From Promethearchaeota archaeon (lineage in GTDB: Archaea > Asgardarchaeota > Lokiarchaeia > Sigyniarchaeales > SOKP01): a stretch of DNA of 22,213 nucleotides. The notes beneath the pieces are model-generated. The model ran no database searches, had not been told where the DNA came from, and was given only the letters and a program-made list of their open reading frames with translations. Below are positions 5,570 through 22,045 of the stretch, piece after piece; the first letter of the stretch is position 1, and each line of letters begins with the position of its first letter. The translations under genes were made by a program, and so were the position numbers. The stretch lies in contig JAHLWH010000194.1 in NCBI GenBank assembly GCA_019058015.1, positions 1-22,213 on the forward strand. The letters are read 5' to 3'.

Positions 5570-5752
5570 ATGGTCAAAGTTAGAAATTGCTCATTCTGTG
5601 GTTATAACATCCCGGCTGGACGAGGAATAATGTATATAAAAAATGATGGAAATATTCTAAACTTTTGCTCGAATAAATGCCGTAAAGCAATGCTTAAATA
5701 TAAAAAGAATCCGAGGAAAACCCGTTGGACTAAATTTTATGGAAAACAATAA
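5570..5752 (+). CDS. rpl24e: 50S ribosomal protein eL24
   Basis: CSFCG...GRGIMYIKNDG...FCSNKC...NPRKTRWT. Start taken as ATG 5570, preceded by GGAG. Confidence 0.95.
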   Translation: MVKVRNCSFCGYNIPAGRGIMYIKNDGNILNFCSNKCRKAMLKYKKNPRKTRWTKFYGKQ

Positions 5753-6180: not shown

Positions 6181-7671
6181 ATGTCTCAAAGCACAAGCAA
6201 ATTCTTAAGGTTCTTCTCCCCATTTATCAGAGTAATGCCGGAAATAAAAACTCCAGATAGAGAAGTCTCTTTTAAAGAAAAAATAATATGGACCGCAGTA
6301 GCTTTAATTATTTATTTAATTATGAGTAATATCCCTTTATATGGGGTTGATATTCAAGAAACTCAAGATTATTTTTATTGGTTGCGAGTTATTTTAGCCT
6401 CTCAGAGGGGGACATTAACGGAGCTGGGGATAGGTCCGATTGTAACTTCAGGTCTGATTATGCAGTTATTAATGGGTTCAGGTATTATAAAGATAAATAT
6501 GGCAGATCCTTATGATCGAAGCATGTTTACTGGAGCCCAAAAAATTTTAGCAATGTTTCTTACGGTATTTAACATTATAGCATATTTAGTTGGAGGTGCT
6601 TTTGGAAATCTTGAAGAAATTAGCCCTGCTGCTGTTATATTCATATTTCTCCAACTGTTTTTTTCGGGAGTAATTATAATTTTACTAGATGAGATGTTAC
6701 AGAAAGGTTGGGGTATTGGCTCAGGTGTGTCTCTCTTTATTGCAGCTGGGATTGCAGGACAAGTATTTTGGAATTGTTTTAGTTTTGTACCTATGACTGG
6801 AGAACATTTTGATGAAATGCCTCGTGGTATAGTTATTGCGTTTTTCCAAGCTTTATTTGATCCAGAGTCTCCAGTTGGAGTAGAGGATCTATGGTTTCGT
6901 GAATCCAATTTGCCTGGACTTGTGAGTATCATAACAACAATAGGAATATTTGTTGTCATTGTGTATTTTGAAAGTGTTAATATTGAGATTCCTCTGGCTT
7001 ACAGTGGATATCGAGGGTTCCAGGGAAAGTACCCGATCAAATTGCTTTATGTATCAAATATTCCAGTTATTTTAGTATCAGCTCTATATGCGAACCTACT
7101 GTTTATAGGTCAAATAATTGCGGGACCAAATTCAGCACTCCGTGGGGGGGATATAGATTTTTTGTTAAATTTAATTGCTTCTTATTCAGACGACCCAACA
7201 GCGACTGGTCCAGGTGGAAGTTATTTAAGTCCAATTGGGGGTATTCTTTATTTAATGACACCTCCGCAAGGGTTTGAATCAGTTATTGGAGATCCGTTGC
7301 GAGCTCTTATTTATTTGGGGATATTTATCGTATTCTGTGTAGTATTCGGAAGGGTTTGGGTTGAAGTTTCTGGATTGGCTCCACGAGATATTGCAAGACA
7401 AATTATAGATAGTGGAATGGAAATTCCAGGATTTAGAAGATCTGAGAAGATTATTGAGCGAATCTTGGCCAGATACATACCCACATTGACGATATTGTGC
7501 GGAATAATAGTAGGATTCCTTAGTTTCACCTCGGATGCGTTAGGAGCACTTTCTTCAGGAACAGGGTTATTAATCGCCATTGGAATTATTCATCAGTATG
7601 CCGAATCAATATCGAAAGAAGCTGCTGCGGAACAATATCCTGCTCTTCGAGGATTTTTAGGATTAGATTAA
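6181..7671 (+). CDS. secY: Protein translocase subunit SecY / Sec61alpha
   Basis: About 10 TM segments. FKEKIIWT, YWLRVILASQRGTLTELGIGPIVTSGLIMQLL, LLDEMLQKGWGIGSGVSLFIA, YPIKLLYVSNIPVIL, IPGFR and SGTGLL motifs. Confidence 0.97.
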   Translation: MSQSTSKFLRFFSPFIRVMPEIKTPDREVSFKEKIIWTAVALIIYLIMSNIPLYGVDIQETQDYFYWLRVILASQRGTLTELGIGPIVTSGLIMQLLMGSGIIKINMADPYDRSMFTGAQKILAMFLTVFNIIAYLVGGAFGNLEEISPAAVIFIFLQLFFSGVIIILLDEMLQKGWGIGSGVSLFIAAGIAGQVFWNCFSFVPMTGEHFDEMPRGIVIAFFQALFDPESPVGVEDLWFRESNLPGLVSIITTIGIFVVIVYFESVNIEIPLAYSGYRGFQGKYPIKLLYVSNIPVILVSALYANLLFIGQIIAGPNSALRGGDIDFLLNLIASYSDDPTATGPGGSYLSPIGGILYLMTPPQGFESVIGDPLRALIYLGIFIVFCVVFGRVWVEVSGLAPRDIARQIIDSGMEIPGFRRSEKIIERILARYIPTLTILCGIIVGFLSFTSDALGALSSGTGLLIAIGIIHQYAESISKEAAAEQYPALRGFLGLD

Positions 7672-7693: not shown

Positions 7694-8374
7694 TTGTTAA
7701 TATTGATATTTCAGGAATCAAATAACTTTCTTGATTTTATAACTTATCCTTTGGGATCAACAATTTTTGTTATGTTATTATCGCTAACCATTGCACTTTT
7801 TTCTTCATTTTTAACGAAGAAATTAGTTGATACTGAAGAATTAGAGAGAAAACAGAAGCTTATAAAAAAACATAAAGATGAAAAGAAAAAAATAATTGCA
7901 CTCGCAGAAACAAACCCAAAACAATATAGAAAGAAGAAAACTAAATGGCAAAGAAAGGATCAATTTATAAAAAACATCGAACGAGGAATAGGTTTACAAC
8001 GAATGAAGCCTATGTGTATAACGTTTTTGCCTATGATGATAATGTTTGGAGTTTTGAATATTTTCTTTGGCAAAAGTCCTGTTGCTTGTACACCCATGAA
8101 TGCAAACGATGTTCCTTTAATTAGTGAATATATTTGGGCTGCAACTAAGATCGAGGAACTCCCGCCAGCATGGACTGCATTGGTTTGGGGGGTAGCACGT
8201 CATATTGGCCAATTCGAAGGATGGATTAGTTTTACTGCGTGGTATTTCTTGAACTCCTTTTTTTTTAATGCAATAATCAATCGATTATTAGGAATACAAT
8301 CACAAACTACTGGTGGTATGGAAGGAATATTTAAGGGAATGGGAGCAGAAGCTACTGAATTTCCTGATATTTGA
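7694..8374 (+). CDS. EMC3/TMCO1 (DUF106) Oxa1-superfamily membrane insertase
   Basis: TM1, cytosolic coiled coil, MKPMCITFLP and a C-terminal WYFL motif. Directly downstream of secY, with GGAGG SD at 7681-7685. Confidence 0.87.
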   Translation: MLILIFQESNNFLDFITYPLGSTIFVMLLSLTIALFSSFLTKKLVDTEELERKQKLIKKHKDEKKKIIALAETNPKQYRKKKTKWQRKDQFIKNIERGIGLQRMKPMCITFLPMMIMFGVLNIFFGKSPVACTPMNANDVPLISEYIWAATKIEELPPAWTALVWGVARHIGQFEGWISFTAWYFLNSFFFNAIINRLLGIQSQTTGGMEGIFKGMGAEATEFPDI

Positions 8375-8402: not shown

Positions 8403-8515
8403 CGCAGATGAGGGGATTTGAACCCCTGAGCGCGCACGCGCACTGGCTTTACAGGTAAAATAATTTTTTATTAATCGCTCCAAGCCAGCGTCTTACCAGT
8501 CTAGGCTACATCTGC
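8403..8515 (-). tRNA. tRNA-Ser(GGA) with a 29-nt intron at 37/38
   Basis: Minus strand: acceptor GCAGATG/CATCTGC plus G73, anticodon stem CTGGC/GCCAG, GGA at 8481-8479, long variable arm GCGCGTGCGCGC, T arm AGGGG-TTCAAAT-CCCCT. Intron about 8449-8477. CCA not encoded. Confidence 0.88.
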
Positions 8516-9960: not shown

Positions 9961-10608
9961 TCAGAGATTTAATTTGCTTTTAAACTCTTTAAAAATTGAA
10001 TAGATTTTTTCTGCCAAATCATCTTGTTCTTGAGGAGCTTGTATAATATCATCAGCTATATTTTTAATTTTTGTATACAATAAATCAATTTTTTCTTTTA
10101 TAGAATCAAGCCCAGGAAATTTTTCTAAAGAGATTAATAAATCAAGAAATAATTTTTTTAGTAATTTACTAGTTGCAATATCTCTTAGTTTTAATGCATC
10201 CATCAATGTAATAAAACTACTGGTGATTTCTGTTGAGATTCCTGGTAATTCTAGCACTGCTTGTTGGAGTTTAGGTTTTAGATTTTTATCTAGAGTATCT
10301 GTTTTTTTGTAATTTATATCTCCTTGGTTTGGATTAAATTTCAAGTTGGAAACATTATTAATAATATCAATAGCAGTATGATAATCTTCAGAGAATTCCA
10401 TTTTTTCTAAAAATATATTTAAATTTATCCCCTTATCTTGTAATTCGAAGTTAAATTGAATTAATTCTTGGATTGTGGATTTTATTGATTTTAAGTAGAA
10501 ATTTTCTTGAATTTCTCCCTTTGTATATTTTTTATGAATATTTATAATAGTTTTGACTAAAGCAAATAATTCTGATTCAATTTCAAGGATTGATTTTTGG
10601 TTTTTCAT
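9961..10608 (-). CDS. vps28: Vps28-like ESCRT-I subunit
   Basis: N-terminal ESELFALVKTI...KKYTKGEI...FY resembles the Vps28 core. C-terminal EITSSFITLMDALKL...LFLDLLISLEKF matches the Vps28 FITxMDxLKL motif. Length 215 aa fits the family. Confidence 0.78.
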   Translation of the reverse strand: MKNQKSILEIESELFALVKTIINIHKKYTKGEIQENFYLKSIKSTIQELIQFNFELQDKGINLNIFLEKMEFSEDYHTAIDIINNVSNLKFNPNQGDINYKKTDTLDKNLKPKLQQAVLELPGISTEITSSFITLMDALKLRDIATSKLLKKLFLDLLISLEKFPGLDSIKEKIDLLYTKIKNIADDIIQAPQEQDDLAEKIYSIFKEFKSKLNL

Positions 10609-12273: not shown

Positions 12274-13338
12274 TTAAATTTGTTTTTGTTTCAGATTTAC
12301 AATAATTCCATTACTCTCTTTTAAAATTTTATACTCCTTCAAATTAAATTTTTGGAGTAATTCTAAATTTGTTTTTAAATGACTTGTTAATTCGGAAACT
12401 CTTATTCGAGATTCTCCATTAGCAATTGACATAACTGGGATCAATTGATCAGCTAGATAATTATCCACGGGTATTTTGTTTTTAATATAGGAAATAATTG
12501 CATTTGCAGCATGTTTTCCTACCTTTTCGGACGAAACACCTCTTTCTCCCAAGATTGTTCCTGAACTAATAATTGCCTTTGTATCAGATTCAGCCCATAA
12601 ACATATACCTACTCCAGTACTATATGTTTTTACATAGTCATAAATAATATTACAGCTTAAACCTAATTTTTGGTGAATTTGGGATTTTATTGTTTCTATT
12701 ATACGTTCAGCAACTTTAGGTTTTCTTAAAGCTTCTGAACATATAACACGTCCATTGATTTGGCTAACATTTCCCAATTCAACGATCTCTATTGGTTTTA
12801 TTGGTTGTGTGGAACCAGATATTGTGAAGTGTAAGTGTGCACCTCCCTTGGGATAAAATCCATGGCGGTGTATTTTCAAATTGGTTTTATATCCTACTTG
12901 TTCATATACTTTAAAAAGAACATTTGTTAAAAAAGAAGTTCCAGGGGCCCATTTTCCATAGGTTCCTCCTCCCTTTATTTCCAGATTGATTGATTTTCCA
13001 GAACCTAACCTCATACATGCAATTTGAACTGGTTGGAGTAATAAAGCAACATTTCCTGCTGTTTCAACATTTATAACTAAATTTTCCTTAAACTCATCCC
13101 CAGGAGAAAATTCAATTTCTGTGGTCCCTACTGTAGATTTAGATAAATACCCACCTGTAAGTTTTTCCAATATTTGCAATCCGCGTAAATGTTGTAATCG
13201 TAATCCTGGTTTTGGTCTGTTTGCTCTAATATTTTTTACTCTTATTGGGATTTGTTTTAACACAGAAAAGCCTGATGATAACCGTAATATCGATCCACCC
13301 CCCTCAAGAAGTGATCCATCAATAGCTAACGGTTCCAT
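12274..13338 (-). CDS. rtcA: RNA 3'-terminal phosphate cyclase
   Basis: IDGSLLEGGGSILR, IRANRPKPGLRLQH, GFYPKGG, YLADQL and catalytic His in TSHLKTN. Confidence 0.95.
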   Translation of the reverse strand: MEPLAIDGSLLEGGGSILRLSSGFSVLKQIPIRVKNIRANRPKPGLRLQHLRGLQILEKLTGGYLSKSTVGTTEIEFSPGDEFKENLVINVETAGNVALLLQPVQIACMRLGSGKSINLEIKGGGTYGKWAPGTSFLTNVLFKVYEQVGYKTNLKIHRHGFYPKGGAHLHFTISGSTQPIKPIEIVELGNVSQINGRVICSEALRKPKVAERIIETIKSQIHQKLGLSCNIIYDYVKTYSTGVGICLWAESDTKAIISSGTILGERGVSSEKVGKHAANAIISYIKNKIPVDNYLADQLIPVMSIANGESRIRVSELTSHLKTNLELLQKFNLKEYKILKESNGIIVNLKQKQI

Positions 13339-18747: not shown

Positions 18748-19035
18748 AAATCATCATCACATTATATTAAATATTGAACTTTTTTTTGTATAACCATCTA
18801 AGAGTTTTTAAGCTTATTATTTTTTTGTTAAAATTAAAAAGATTGTTATTAAATTTATTTTTATTGATTTTCCTAATTCATTGATAAATTCAATAAATGA
18901 TTTTCTTATGTTAATAAAATTTTTATTAATTTAACAATTAAATTGATAATAGAATAATAAGAAAAGAATTATTACAAAAAATTTATTTAAAAAACGCTCC
19001 CATGGCTAAGCTTGGTTTAAAGCGCTGGTCTTATA

Positions 19036-19088
19036 AGACATATAGACATACAAAAAAAATAAGAATTCTGTCTATAAGCATTTAGGAG
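19036..19088 (+). other. tRNA intron 1 (53 nt, canonical 37/38)
   Basis: Central helix C32-T33-T34-A35 pairs with TAGG (19083-19086); 3-nt bulges TAA and AGA. Internal hairpin TATAGACA/TGTCTATA. Confidence 0.85.
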
Positions 19089-19110
19089 AACCAGAGAACG
19101 GGGGATCGAA

Positions 19111-19140
19111 AGAAAGAGCCATTTGGACTCATTCTGATAT
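19111..19140 (+). other. tRNA intron 2 (30 nt, non-canonical 59/60, T-loop)
   Basis: Central helix ATCG (54-57) pairs with TGAT (19135-19138); bulges AAA and ATG. Outer helix GAA/TTC, followed by GAG/CTC. Confidence 0.85.
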
Positions 19141-19186
19141 GCCCCCTGGGAGCACTAATTCTTTAATTCCGATAAAAAAGAAGATA

Positions 19187-19732
19187 TTATTTTTTTTTGA
19201 TAACGCGAGTTAGTGAAGCAGATATTGCCCAACCAATAGTAAAGAAAAGTAAAATCCATTTCATAAGTGCAACCCAAGAGTGAGATACTGCCCAAATATC
19301 TGGAAAACCTAGTGGATCTGTAAGCATTGCTAATATAAATCCATTTTCAATAGCATCCAAACTCGCTGCAATAATTCCTAAAATAGCAATTAAGAAACCT
19401 GACTTCCTCCATTTTGTGCTTTCGTTAAATTTTCTAGCAATAATTAAAGCAAGAGAGAAGATTAAAATCCCATAACTAACCATAAACCCGTAATCGAGTA
19501 TTTCTGCGATTCTATAGTTATTTATATCCACTGTATTCATTGTATTAAAGTGGGACTTAATAATTTCACCACTAAATGATAGTTGACTTTCTATATAATT
19601 TACTGGATAATTTGATATAATGGAAAAATAAGTCATAATGGGATAAACAATAAACAGAAGAATTATACTAAAAATTAATAATACTCGATTTTTTTTAGTA
19701 GATGGCCAATCAGATAATTTCTCTAAAAACAT
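19187..19732 (-). CDS. Hypothetical membrane protein (about 4 TM)
   Basis: Four hydrophobic segments with LDYGFMVSYG, LDAIEN and ALMKW motifs. No function assignable. Confidence 0.75.
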   Translation of the reverse strand: MFLEKLSDWPSTKKNRVLLIFSIILLFIVYPIMTYFSIISNYPVNYIESQLSFSGEIIKSHFNTMNTVDINNYRIAEILDYGFMVSYGILIFSLALIIARKFNESTKWRKSGFLIAILGIIAASLDAIENGFILAMLTDPLGFPDIWAVSHSWVALMKWILLFFTIGWAISASLTRVIKKK

Positions 19733-19902
19733 TTTTCACAAATGATCTTAATTTTCTAAGTTTATTTTGATTAGAATAATTAATTAAAAAATCTATTTAA
19801 TTCTTTTGAGTTTTTTAAATATCCTTAACTTATATCCCTAAACTTCGGTTTTTTAACTTAAAAGAGACCTAAACAAAAAAGGAATGTAAAAATATGAAAA
19901 AT

Positions 19903-20583
19903 TTAACCCACTAATTTTACTTTAATTTGTCCAATGAGCCATTTTTTAATTTGGATAAAATTTTTTAGCATACCTTTCCCTTGTTCGGTAGGAAACTCTT
20001 GTTCCTGTGGGAGGGTTTGTGTGTATGTCATCCATTTATTTAGAGCGAGCTGTACCAAATTATATCCTTCAGCCTCCTTTATGATCGGAATTACGGCGGC
20101 AGTTTCTCTTGTGTCACCTACAGAGAAGTATATCTTTCTTATGACATCTCCAATCATTATTCCGTTAATTACTTCATCTATTTTCCTTAGAACAATAATA
20201 GATTTTAATATCTGGTTTTTTACGTTTTCTTCAAGGGCGCTAAACCCTTTCTTCCTATTTTCCATTATTTCTTTAATTTTTTCAGTTAATGGTTCTAACT
20301 CTTCTTCGGTATTAGCAAAATAAGTTATATTTACTCCGTCATCTGCTGCTTGGACTTTACAGAAATATTTTTTAGTTGAATTAAACATAATTATTGTGCT
20401 TCCTTTTTCTTCTGCAGAGAGTTTAATCCAAATAGCACGGAGCTGGACGTCATTACAGCAATGATATGAAATTTCAAATAATTCTTTTTTTGATAAAGAA
20501 TTATAGGTTATTGTAATGACTTTATTTTTCCAGTTCTTCTCAACAATATTTTTATATTGTGATAAAATCTTGTTTGCGACCAT
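19903..20583 (-). CDS. Hypothetical protein (alpha/beta N-terminal domain plus helical bundle)
   Basis: Long open frame. ATG 20583 preceded by GGGTG; the ORF track uses 20595. Confidence 0.7.
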   Translation of the reverse strand: MVANKILSQYKNIVEKNWKNKVITITYNSLSKKELFEISYHCCNDVQLRAIWIKLSAEEKGSTIIMFNSTKKYFCKVQAADDGVNITYFANTEEELEPLTEKIKEIMENRKKGFSALEENVKNQILKSIIVLRKIDEVINGIMIGDVIRKIYFSVGDTRETAAVIPIIKEAEGYNLVQLALNKWMTYTQTLPQEQEFPTEQGKGMLKNFIQIKKWLIGQIKVKLVG

Positions 20584-20599
20584 ATACACCCACAAAAAG

Positions 20600-20615
20600 A
20601 TAAGAAATTTCTTAT
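20600..20615. promoter_or_regulatory. Perfect 16-bp palindrome, possible operator
   Basis: ATAAGAAATTTCTTAT, about 17 bp upstream of the ATG at 20583. Confidence 0.35.
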
Positions 20616-20674
20616 AATAATTTAATCCTTTGCTAACATATAAATATTTATTGTAGTTTTTAATTTTAGTTAGT

Positions 20675-22045
20675 TTATTGGTTTAAGGATTTACTGAATT
20701 GATCATAAGATTTTTGAAATCGTATGATAGTTAGATCTATATCTCTTTTTGTTGCACCTATTGCAGAATTCATAACAATATATGCATGTGGATAATGATT
20801 ACAACACATCCCAAATGATTTTTTGGTTGGATCATATATTCTTGGGCCAGTAACTCGTAGAGTATATAATGCACCTCCTAATGAAGATAAATTTCTACTT
20901 TTTAGATTATCTAATGTTAATGCAACAGCTACAGGATTAAACACATTGAGTATTTTTTCTCCAATTTTATCAGCAATTTTGTTTAATTCAACTTCTAAAT
21001 ATTTACGATTTTCCTTTTGTTCTTCTATAAGTGTTTGATAACCTTTAATGCCTAATGAGAGGATAGAAATTAAAAACTGAAAAATGGGTGAGGCGTTAGC
21101 TCGTCCAGCATATGTTCGGCTAATTTTTTCCATTGTATCTTTATCTGGTGTGCATATAATTGACCCACCAACTGGTGTTAGGAAGTTCTTATCAGTAGAT
21201 TGAATTATTGCATCAACTCTTCCAGCGTCTATAGCAGATCTTATCATTTTCATCCATTCTTCACTTTGCACTCCATAAGCATTAACAACTATATGAGCAA
21301 TATCTTTCTCTTGTGCTAATTTTGCAATTTCTTTAATATTATCTGCTTCACGAGGAGGAAAAAAGCTTGTAAATGATAAGATTGAGAAAGTATCTTTATC
21401 AATTCCAGCAGATATCTTTTCTATTGGAACACGAACAGCATCTCCATATATTTCTCCTTCAATAATTTTAGGTTCAGCACCCATATATTTAATTCCTTTT
21501 ATTATCGAGGTATGATCTAATCTAGGCACAACTACTTTTCTTTTGTGAAGAGTATCATTTTTCCATTCAGGTCGTAATCCAGCTAAACACAATGATAAGG
21601 ACATTCCAGTCGCCATTGGAACAACCAAGGCATCTTTAATGTTAGGTAATCCAAACTTACTCATTGCATATTTGGCTAATTTATTAGTTAACTCATGCAT
21701 GATGGATCCACCCGGCGCTTTAGGTTGAGGAGCACTAATTTCTCCACTTCTACCAATTCCATGACAAAAACCAGCAGAGTAGAGATTTAATAATGGTGTT
21801 GAAATACGTGCTTCCCTTTCACCCACTCTAGCGGCATCTAAATCTTTATCTGTATCCATTTGAGATAATAATTTTAATAAAAATTTTATTTGCTCATCTT
21901 CCCAAGGCTCTTCCGGAACTCGTTTTTGTTCTAATAAATTTTTAATTGGCTTTAACCAATTATCAAGAACAATTTGTCACCTATTAATTATATTTTGTGG
22001 AATTTTCGAGCCTTCAATTAAATCCCTTATTTTTTTTTCAAACAT
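20675..22045 (-). CDS. spcS: O-phosphoseryl-tRNA(Sec) selenium transferase (SepSecS) with in-frame TGA at codon 23 (recoded, pseudogenised or sequencing error)
   Basis: MDTDKD...VGEREAR, HGIGRSG...QPKAPG, TGMSL, FFPPR, NAYG, PLP-Lys STDKNFLTPVGG, GRA and RVTGPR motifs. Upstream of the listed ORF the same frame reads MFEKKIRDLIEGSKIPQNIINR*QIVLDNWLKPIKNLLEQKRVPEEPWEDEQIKFLLKLLSQ, the family's N-terminal scaffold. TGA at 21979-21977. Confidence 0.92.

Follow-up and report, generated by a model that had tools for sequence, protein, structure and literature searches.

The window analysed here, 22,213 nucleotides (nt) of contig JAHLWH010000194.1 of a Loki-type Asgard archaeon (assembly GCA_019058015.1), carries at positions 18996-19154 a gene for an isoleucine tRNA with the anticodon UAU, tRNA-Ile(UAU), which is very probably the AUA decoder of an Asgard lineage without TiaS. 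We consider it highly likely that this locus is the organism's single gene for an AUA-decoding tRNA-Ile(UAU), or 'tRNA-Ile3', and that it replaces tRNA-Ile2(CAU) together with the TiaS/agmatidine system. Discrimination between AUA and AUG is the hardest wobble problem of the genetic code, and the three domains of life had been taken to solve it each in its own way. The structure of the gene, its conservation, the lack of a detectable TiaS, the heavy use of AUA and the presence of splicing genes are established here.

Structure of the tRNA-Ile(UAU) gene

The gene lies in an AT-rich spacer with a minus-strand open reading frame (ORF) on either side, and is made up of the following parts.

18996-19154, plus strand: tRNA-Ile(UAU) gene, three exons and two bulge-helix-bulge (BHB) introns
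18996-19035, plus strand: exon 1, tRNA positions 1-37 (ARAGORN cloverleaf after in-silico splicing), with the 5' strands of the acceptor and anticodon stems, the D arm (G18 G19 included) and C32 U33 U34 A35 U36 A37
19032-19034, plus strand: anticodon TAT (UAU), predicted AUA reader (sequence, ARAGORN, contigs of three DNA studies)
19036-19088, plus strand: intron 1 (53 nt), at the canonical 37/38 site (strict hBHBh' motif starting at C32; ARAGORN)
19041-19076, plus strand: hairpin inside intron 1, stem 19041-19048 with 19069-19076 (covariation, 24 orthologues)
19089-19110, plus strand: exon 2, tRNA positions 38-59 (ARAGORN on the spliced form), with A38, the 3' strand of the anticodon stem, the variable region, the 5' strand of the T stem (GGGGG) and T-loop positions 54-59
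19111-19140, plus strand: intron 2 (30 nt), in the T loop at the non-canonical site 59/60 (strict hBHBh' motif starting at 19105)
19141-19154, plus strand: exon 3, tRNA positions 60-73 (ARAGORN on the spliced form), with position 60, the 3' strands of the T stem (CCCCC) and of the acceptor stem, and discriminator A73; CCA is not encoded

Standard gene finders miss this gene because the T-loop intron 2 interrupts it. ARAGORN in default mode called no tRNA gene in the unspliced window, and at its gathering score the Rfam tRNA model matched only another gene of the window, at 8403-8515; at E<=10, the region 18900-19260 gave five weak Rfam matches, none of them to tRNA. With both introns removed, ARAGORN called the resulting 76-nt cloverleaf tRNA-Ile(tat), with 7/7 pairs in the acceptor stem. 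Removal of intron 2 alone was sufficient for ARAGORN to locate the 53-nt intron by itself, and removal of intron 1 alone gave no ARAGORN tRNA. The case is a warning that in these genomes standard tRNA finders overlook a decoder that is probably essential.

The acceptor, anticodon and T stems of the spliced product are fully paired, and U8, A14, G18 G19, U33, A37 after U36, G53-C61, U55, C56, A58 and A73 are all present. An earlier note on this DNA had described a TAT anticodon in a well-formed tRNA, and the cloverleaf bears this out. The spliced anticodon loop is 7 nt long (CTTATA plus A19089) and is closed by a 5-bp stem (19025-19029 with 19090-19094).

Introns were located with a custom genome-wide scan for the strict hBHBh' motif, that is, two opposite 3-nt bulges, a 4-bp helix between them and flanking helices. 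Both introns have 8/8 of the required pairs (4/4 central, 2/2 outer and 2/2 inner); the background of this motif is 642,842 matches over both strands and 121 lengths, or about 7 in 10,000 position/length combinations. The central helix of intron 1 comprises C32-G19086, U33.G19085, U34-A19084 and A35-U19083, with a 3-nt bulge on either side (19034-19036 and 19087-19089). The pairing of U34 with A19084 that the earlier note had proposed is thus part of this helix. In intron 2 the outer helix is the T stem itself, 19105-19108 pair with 19135-19138 in the central helix, and the bulges lie at 19109-19111 and 19139-19141. The earlier picture of a gene with one intron holds for the 37/38 intron and had left the second, at position 59/60, unmentioned.

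The sequence was compared with contigs of three separate DNA studies. These span the gene in full and have no differing letter within 18996-19154, T at 19032 included; their sole differences from the window, at 18899, 18903 and 18955, precede the gene. Since the three studies agree on T at 19032, an assembly slip is not the explanation, and the earlier argument that this letter is unlikely to be a miscalled C is upheld.

Departures from the T54-Psi55-C56 rule (Psi, pseudouridine) are frequent among the T loops of this genome: tRNA-Ile(UAU) has A54, an elongator-like CAU tRNA (C240:313-451) has C54, and both tRNA-Ile(GAU) (C102:75-170) and the tRNA at C240:200-298 have C55. These departures may bear on which position-54/55 modifying enzymes act in this genome.

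TiaS, the CAU tRNAs and the distribution of the UAU gene

The earlier note had proposed that this lineage replaced or supplemented the agmatidine system, and had called for a search for tiaS and tRNA-Ile2(CAU). The TiaS_TCKD kinase domain (PF22641) had no match in this 94.4%-complete genome, and 4/4 archaeal control genomes were positive. The only match to TiaS_FLD (PF08489) scored 19 bits against a cut-off of 21 and fell in an ORF that is aconitase-like, judged by its translation alone. Among 41 relatives, two had any TiaS match and one of these exceeded the cut-off, in a different family. We then surveyed 301 Asgard genomes, each at least 80% complete. TiaS was present in 158 of them, absent from all 91 sampled genomes of the organism's own family and all 9 of its sister family (many of these 100 genomes being 98-100% complete), and absent from eight further Asgard families (f4, f5, f7, f8, f17, f18, f21 and f25). 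It appears, as proposed, that the lineage does without the agmatidine system. Close relatives of the Asgard TiaS were found in named records of Hodarchaeota, Heimdallarchaeota, Hermodarchaeota, Thorarchaeota, Baldrarchaeum and Jordarchaeia; the locus scan for these named lineages used an alignment of four sequences, a first alignment having been too diverse.

The UAU gene shows the complementary distribution. BLAST found it in 15/41 relatives, this genome counted, and 13/13 readable homologues carry GGTCTTATA, the UAU loop, followed by an intron. For the 301 genomes we used the pattern TGGT-N3-7-GCRCNGGNCTTATA, which spans G18G19 to A37 with TAT. It matched in 68 genomes, all in families without TiaS (59/91 in the own family, 7/9 in the sister family and 1/14 in one other TiaS-less family), and in no TiaS-bearing family; a reversed control gave 0. 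The pattern is lineage-specific, and a genome that it misses elsewhere may still have a UAU tRNA. By these searches the UAU gene tracks the loss of TiaS, and no family has both.

An intron follows A37 in 30/30 fetched loci that match the pattern. Of 27 distinct loci, 24 have a motif that on excision yields the 7-nt UAU loop; a contig end truncates one of the other three. The central helix of the intron starts at C32 in own-genus and sister-family genes and takes a relaxed form, starting at U33, in most of the family. A genome of the same genus (L002, G004:C2:186808-186966) has a tRNA-Ile(UAU) gene that is identical at 159/159 positions, introns included; its tRNA-Ser(GGA) gene (L154 comparison) is only 88% identical to that of the window, with indels in the intron. 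Several orthologues (among L009, L011, L012 and L008) have an extra D-arm intron with a duplicated-looking AGCTTGGT segment, and others have T-loop or variable-region introns at differing sites, giving one to three introns per gene across the family.

Two CAU tRNAs were found in this genome. The one at C81:18254-18353 is initiator-like: it has A1-U72 and GGG/CCC in the anticodon stem, and its CCA is encoded. The other, at C240:313-451, is elongator-like and has two introns, one of about 29 nt in the D arm/loop and one of 34 nt at 37/38. The D arms of this tRNA and of tRNA-Ile(UAU) are all but identical, which hints that tRNA-Ile(UAU) may descend from a CAU tRNA. A third CAU tRNA was not found among 290 GC-rich intergenic islands, in a census that is noisy and incomplete: the CAU/UAU stem-loop scan of these islands returned 217 rows, and the two intron-removal pipelines (strict and relaxed), whose anticodon calls at other loci often conflicted, are usable only as a list of loci. 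A CAU version of the pattern, aimed at a C34 orthologue of tRNA-Ile(UAU) in TiaS-bearing families, matched only GGACTCATA tRNAs, which are Met-like, in 17/301 genomes, and none of the 91 genomes of the own family.

These data bear on the alternative that the UAU tRNA works alongside, rather than in place of, a hidden agmatidine-like system, whose divergent cytidine-modifying enzyme and tRNA-Ile2(CAU) would both have escaped detection. The incomplete genome and the partial tRNA census leave some room for this, as does the CAU tRNA at C240:313-451, whose D arm is so close to that of the UAU tRNA and which cannot be assigned to Met or Ile2 from its sequence. Against it, TiaS_TCKD is missing from 100/100 genomes of two families with all controls positive, only two CAU tRNAs were found and the CAU pattern is absent from the own family; if the C240 tRNA were Ile2, no elongator tRNA-Met would remain. 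We judge such a hidden system improbable.

Demand for an AUA decoder is high. The genome (3.84 Mb in 283 contigs, about 30% G+C) uses ATA at 36.0 per 1000 codons in 2178 long ORFs, which makes it the 8th commonest codon and 33% of all isoleucine codons. In the pathway that we propose, the primary transcript would contain two BHB introns, both of which would be excised by the archaeal splicing endonuclease, and RtcB would join the exons to a 76-nt tRNA with the loop C-U-U-A-U-A-A and discriminator A73. An archaeal-type isoleucyl-tRNA synthetase (IleRS), reading a carbonyl acceptor at position 34, would charge this tRNA with isoleucine, and U34 would pair with the A of AUA. The genome encodes two EndA-family proteins (PF01974; 100 and 67.6 bits) and one RtcB (C65:626-1933, 577.5 bits). 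The two separate EndA genes suggest a heteromeric endonuclease of the type that accepts non-canonical sites. A gene for the RNA 3'-phosphate cyclase RtcA is also present, in the window itself (12274-13338, minus strand). According to the available text of PMC11685878, eukaryotic/archaeal IleRS uses a conserved arginine to read a carbonyl or imine acceptor at N34; an acceptor of this kind is present on U34. We infer that the tRNA is expressed, spliced at these sites, charged with isoleucine and modified at U34 against the reading of AUG.

Several points weigh against this assignment. No listed run covering the locus is on record as RNA, and the single run guessed to be RNA is probably DNA, its 311-nt contig (18977-19287) being unspliced and uninformative on expression and splicing. 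Some misreading of AUG would be expected if U34 were unmodified, and a mechanism that prevents it was not identified. A54 in the T loop (A-U-C-G-A-A-G) is unusual for an elongator tRNA and is the sole oddity among the conserved positions; it recurs in some sister-family orthologues and is absent from others. The absence of TiaS is an absence of matches to two Pfam models, which a very divergent or non-homologous enzyme would escape, and in a 94.4%-complete genome with unresolved isoacceptors a third CAU tRNA counts as not found rather than as absent. Finally, a second strict motif register, starting at U31 with a length of 55 nt, exists and would give a different anticodon loop.

Splicing in this second register would remove 19035-19089 and leave a 74-nt product with the anticodon UUA, a possible reader of UAA. 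The U31 register likewise has 8/8 motif pairs, and ARAGORN accepted its product as 'tRNA-Stop(tta)'. This product, however, has a 4-bp anticodon stem, a C in place of the universal U33 and neither A37 nor A38. Moreover, the motif that leaves the CUUAUAA loop is the one kept in 24/27 distinct orthologous loci, most of which are without the U31 register, and the relaxed intron-removal run called Ile(tat) three times and tta once at this locus. We consider use of the U31 register very improbable.

Equally remote is the chance that the locus is a pseudogene, a decaying or silent copy in an organism where AUA is read by something else. The atypical A54 and the lack of a listed run on record as RNA would fit such a copy, but its acceptor, anticodon and T stems are perfect, both of its introns have strict motifs, and the UAU pattern matches only once in this genome. 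The gene is also kept in two families, and its anticodon stem shows compensatory changes (pair 28-42 is AU in 13, UA in 6, GC in 3 and CG in 2 sequences), and AUA is among the commonest codons with no alternative decoder found. A functional tRNA-Ile(UAU) as the decoder of AUA remains the best explanation.

The hairpin of intron 1 and possible anticodon modification

Intron 1 contains a conserved hairpin, which was assessed on 24 distinct orthologous sequences. Both sides change in six of its eight stem pairs; pairing holds in 88.9% of cells, as against 23-40% with the partner slid, and the covariation score is 0.329 as against 0.175 in shuffles (0/500 shuffles as high), figures that are inflated by kinship. 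RNAalifold on the intron alignment gave the anticodon stem only, and the hairpin was named by hand for the pair count. The A-rich hairpin loop opens with U-ACA in this gene (ACA at 19050-19052) and with N-ACA in 20/24 orthologues, all but three genes of the sister family and one of the own family; beyond this opening, its length and sequence vary freely. The control was the intron of the tRNA-Ser(GGA) gene at 8403-8515, a single control, whose length and sequence differ already between two genera of the family.

This control gene is on the minus strand. ARAGORN called it Pro(tgg), and its relatives point to tRNA-Ser(GGA), with the loop U-U-G-G-A-G, a long variable arm and G73; BLAST with this gene also draws the Ser(CGA) and Ser(UGA) isoacceptors.

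Conservation of the hairpin raises the possibility that the specificity of the tRNA for AUA depends on the anticodon intron, whose helix and hairpin would present U34/U36 to a modifying enzyme, either a pseudouridine synthase or a guide ribonucleoprotein, before splicing. This would mirror eukaryotic Psi34/Psi36 and would extend, not exclude, the decoding of AUA by tRNA-Ile(UAU) proposed above. Several observations speak for it: an intron follows A37 in every pattern-matching locus fetched, U33-A35 are in all cases paired with intron bases in the central helix, the hairpin covaries and mostly keeps its ACA while the rest of the loop varies, and the tRNA-Ser(GGA) control intron differs already between two genera. 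Likewise, the tRNA-Ile(UAU) genes of Korarchaeum and ARMAN-2 also have a 37/38 intron, by the accessible passages of PMC6000648 and PMC3239211, and in yeast, in the part of PMC9602550 available, Psi34 and Psi36 are made on the intron-containing precursor and their formation depends on the intron. The presence of an intron by itself says little, since introns occur in most tRNA genes of these lineages according to the available text of a preprint (10.64898/2026.10.13.758758). The genome has a single TruA/Pus1-family gene (PF01416) and no extra Pus1-type synthase, and no Rfam H/ACA or C/D family matches over the region. Nor does the hairpin have the shape of an H/ACA guide, its ACA being in the loop and not 3' of the stem; 4/24 sequences have no ACA, three sister-family introns are without the whole motif, and the comparison has one control intron only. 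On balance we regard intron dependence as unlikely, though it deserves tentative consideration. A eukaryote-like, intron-dependent mode of reading is not supported by the gene content.

Two more specific ideas were rejected. A standard H/ACA or C/D guide in the intron was discarded given the lack of an Rfam match, the lack of K-turn-like GA pairs by eye and the position of ACA inside the loop. A codon mimic, in which a loop AUA would pair with the anticodon, was discarded because the base before ACA varies. The narrower proposal that the anticodon intron is kept because the hairpin with its near-invariant ACA and the anticodon-intron helix are needed for modification of U34 and/or U36 on the precursor, so that the mature tRNA reads AUA and not AUG, is in our view doubtful and rather improbable. 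If it were true, intron-dependent AUA decoding, so far a eukaryotic trait, would extend to archaea and would already be found in Asgard archaea, perhaps in every archaeon with a tRNA-Ile(UAU). The conserved intron element is in any event a candidate for a role in anticodon modification.

Genomic setting and comparison with known systems

Other genes of the window agree with the assignment of the contig. VPS28-like, SecY with Sec61 plug, EMC3/TMCO1-like, RtcA and SepSecS genes together identify an Asgard archaeon, and the first three are eukaryote-signature genes sharing one window.

6181-7671, plus strand: SecY with Sec61 plug
7694-8374, plus strand: EMC3/TMCO1-like membrane insertase
9961-10608, minus strand: VPS28-like (ESCRT-I)
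20675-21859, minus strand: SepSecS, about 1.5 kb downstream of the tRNA-Ile(UAU) gene (19154 to 20675)

A tRNA-Sec gene lies elsewhere in the genome (C156:20802-20894), and with SepSecS it indicates that the organism encodes selenocysteine. A GC-rich island at 5604-5730 was rejected as an RNA gene; it is part of the ORF for the 60-aa ribosomal protein eL24 (5570-5752, plus strand).

The strategy of reading AUA with UAU is already known in a few other archaea, and the Asgard case appears unreported. No publication on tRNA-Ile(UAU) or TiaS in Asgard archaea was found in a search that left subscription journals and supplements outside its range, and the available text of the 2026 preprint on Asgard tRNA introns (10.64898/2026.10.13.758758) nowhere mentions UAU, Ile, TiaS, agmatidine, isoleucine or pseudouridine. 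The finding points to a second AUA route inside the Asgard archaea, in which whole Loki-type families would have dropped TiaS and would use a UAU tRNA, with the anticodon of eukaryotes, and Hod-, Heimdall- and Thor-type lineages retain TiaS. It would represent a dated, repeated decoding switch that is open to study in cultured relatives.

The closest precedents are Nanoarchaeum equitans and Candidatus Korarchaeum cryptofilum, which, according to the accessible part of PMC8450103, have tRNA-Ile3(UAU) in place of tRNA-Ile2(CAU). As far as the text of PMC6000648 available goes, tRNA-Ile-UAU occurs in only 2/167 archaeal genomes, those two, and the Korarchaeum gene has an intron. In these organisms, as here, a genomically encoded UAU stands in for tRNA-Ile2(CAU). 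The present case differs in belonging to another phylum, the Asgard archaea, and to a genome of 3.84 Mb, in having A54 and two introns, the second within the T loop, and in being a trait of whole families (pattern in 59/91 and 7/9 genomes, TiaS in 0/100).

A second precedent is provided by ARMAN-2, -4 and -5 (Micrarchaeota/Parvarchaeota), whose pre-tRNA-Ile(UAU) is described in the available passages of PMC3239211 as having a 37/38 intron with a strict hBHBh' motif, in genomes reported there to be without TiaS or tRNA-Ile(CAU). The same passages describe cleavage of the ARMAN-2 intron in vitro by its own endonuclease, and a 59/60 intron in another tRNA. The UAU anticodon, the strict-motif 37/38 intron and the lack of TiaS are thus shared with the gene described here. 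The ARMAN intron, in contrast, is 25 nt long and goes with an epsilon2-type endonuclease, whereas here the intron is 53 nt long with a conserved hairpin, the genome has two separate EndA-family genes, and a second intron at 59/60 lies within the same gene.

In eukaryotes, the cytoplasmic tRNA-Ile(UAU) has a Psi-A-Psi anticodon made by Pus1 on the intron-containing precursor. The Asgard gene shares with it the UAU anticodon, the 37/38 intron and the pairing of the anticodon with the intron (here U34-A19084 and A35-U19083), but the genome has no second TruA/Pus1-family gene and the introns are of the archaeal BHB type. The claim of a eukaryote-like ancestry is weakened because Hod- and Heimdall-type lineages keep TiaS. 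The 'eukaryote-like' label that the earlier note attached to this tRNA is best reduced to a functional resemblance, the same solution being found in Nanoarchaeum, Korarchaeum and ARMAN, by the accessible text of PMC8450103, PMC6000648 and PMC3239211.

In bacteria that lack TilS, such as Mycoplasma mobile, the available parts of PMC3575796 and PMC8450103 likewise describe loss of the enzyme going together with a UAU anticodon. There, unlike in the Asgard archaeon, the tRNA is bacterial, the IleRS is of bacterial type and the gene has no introns.

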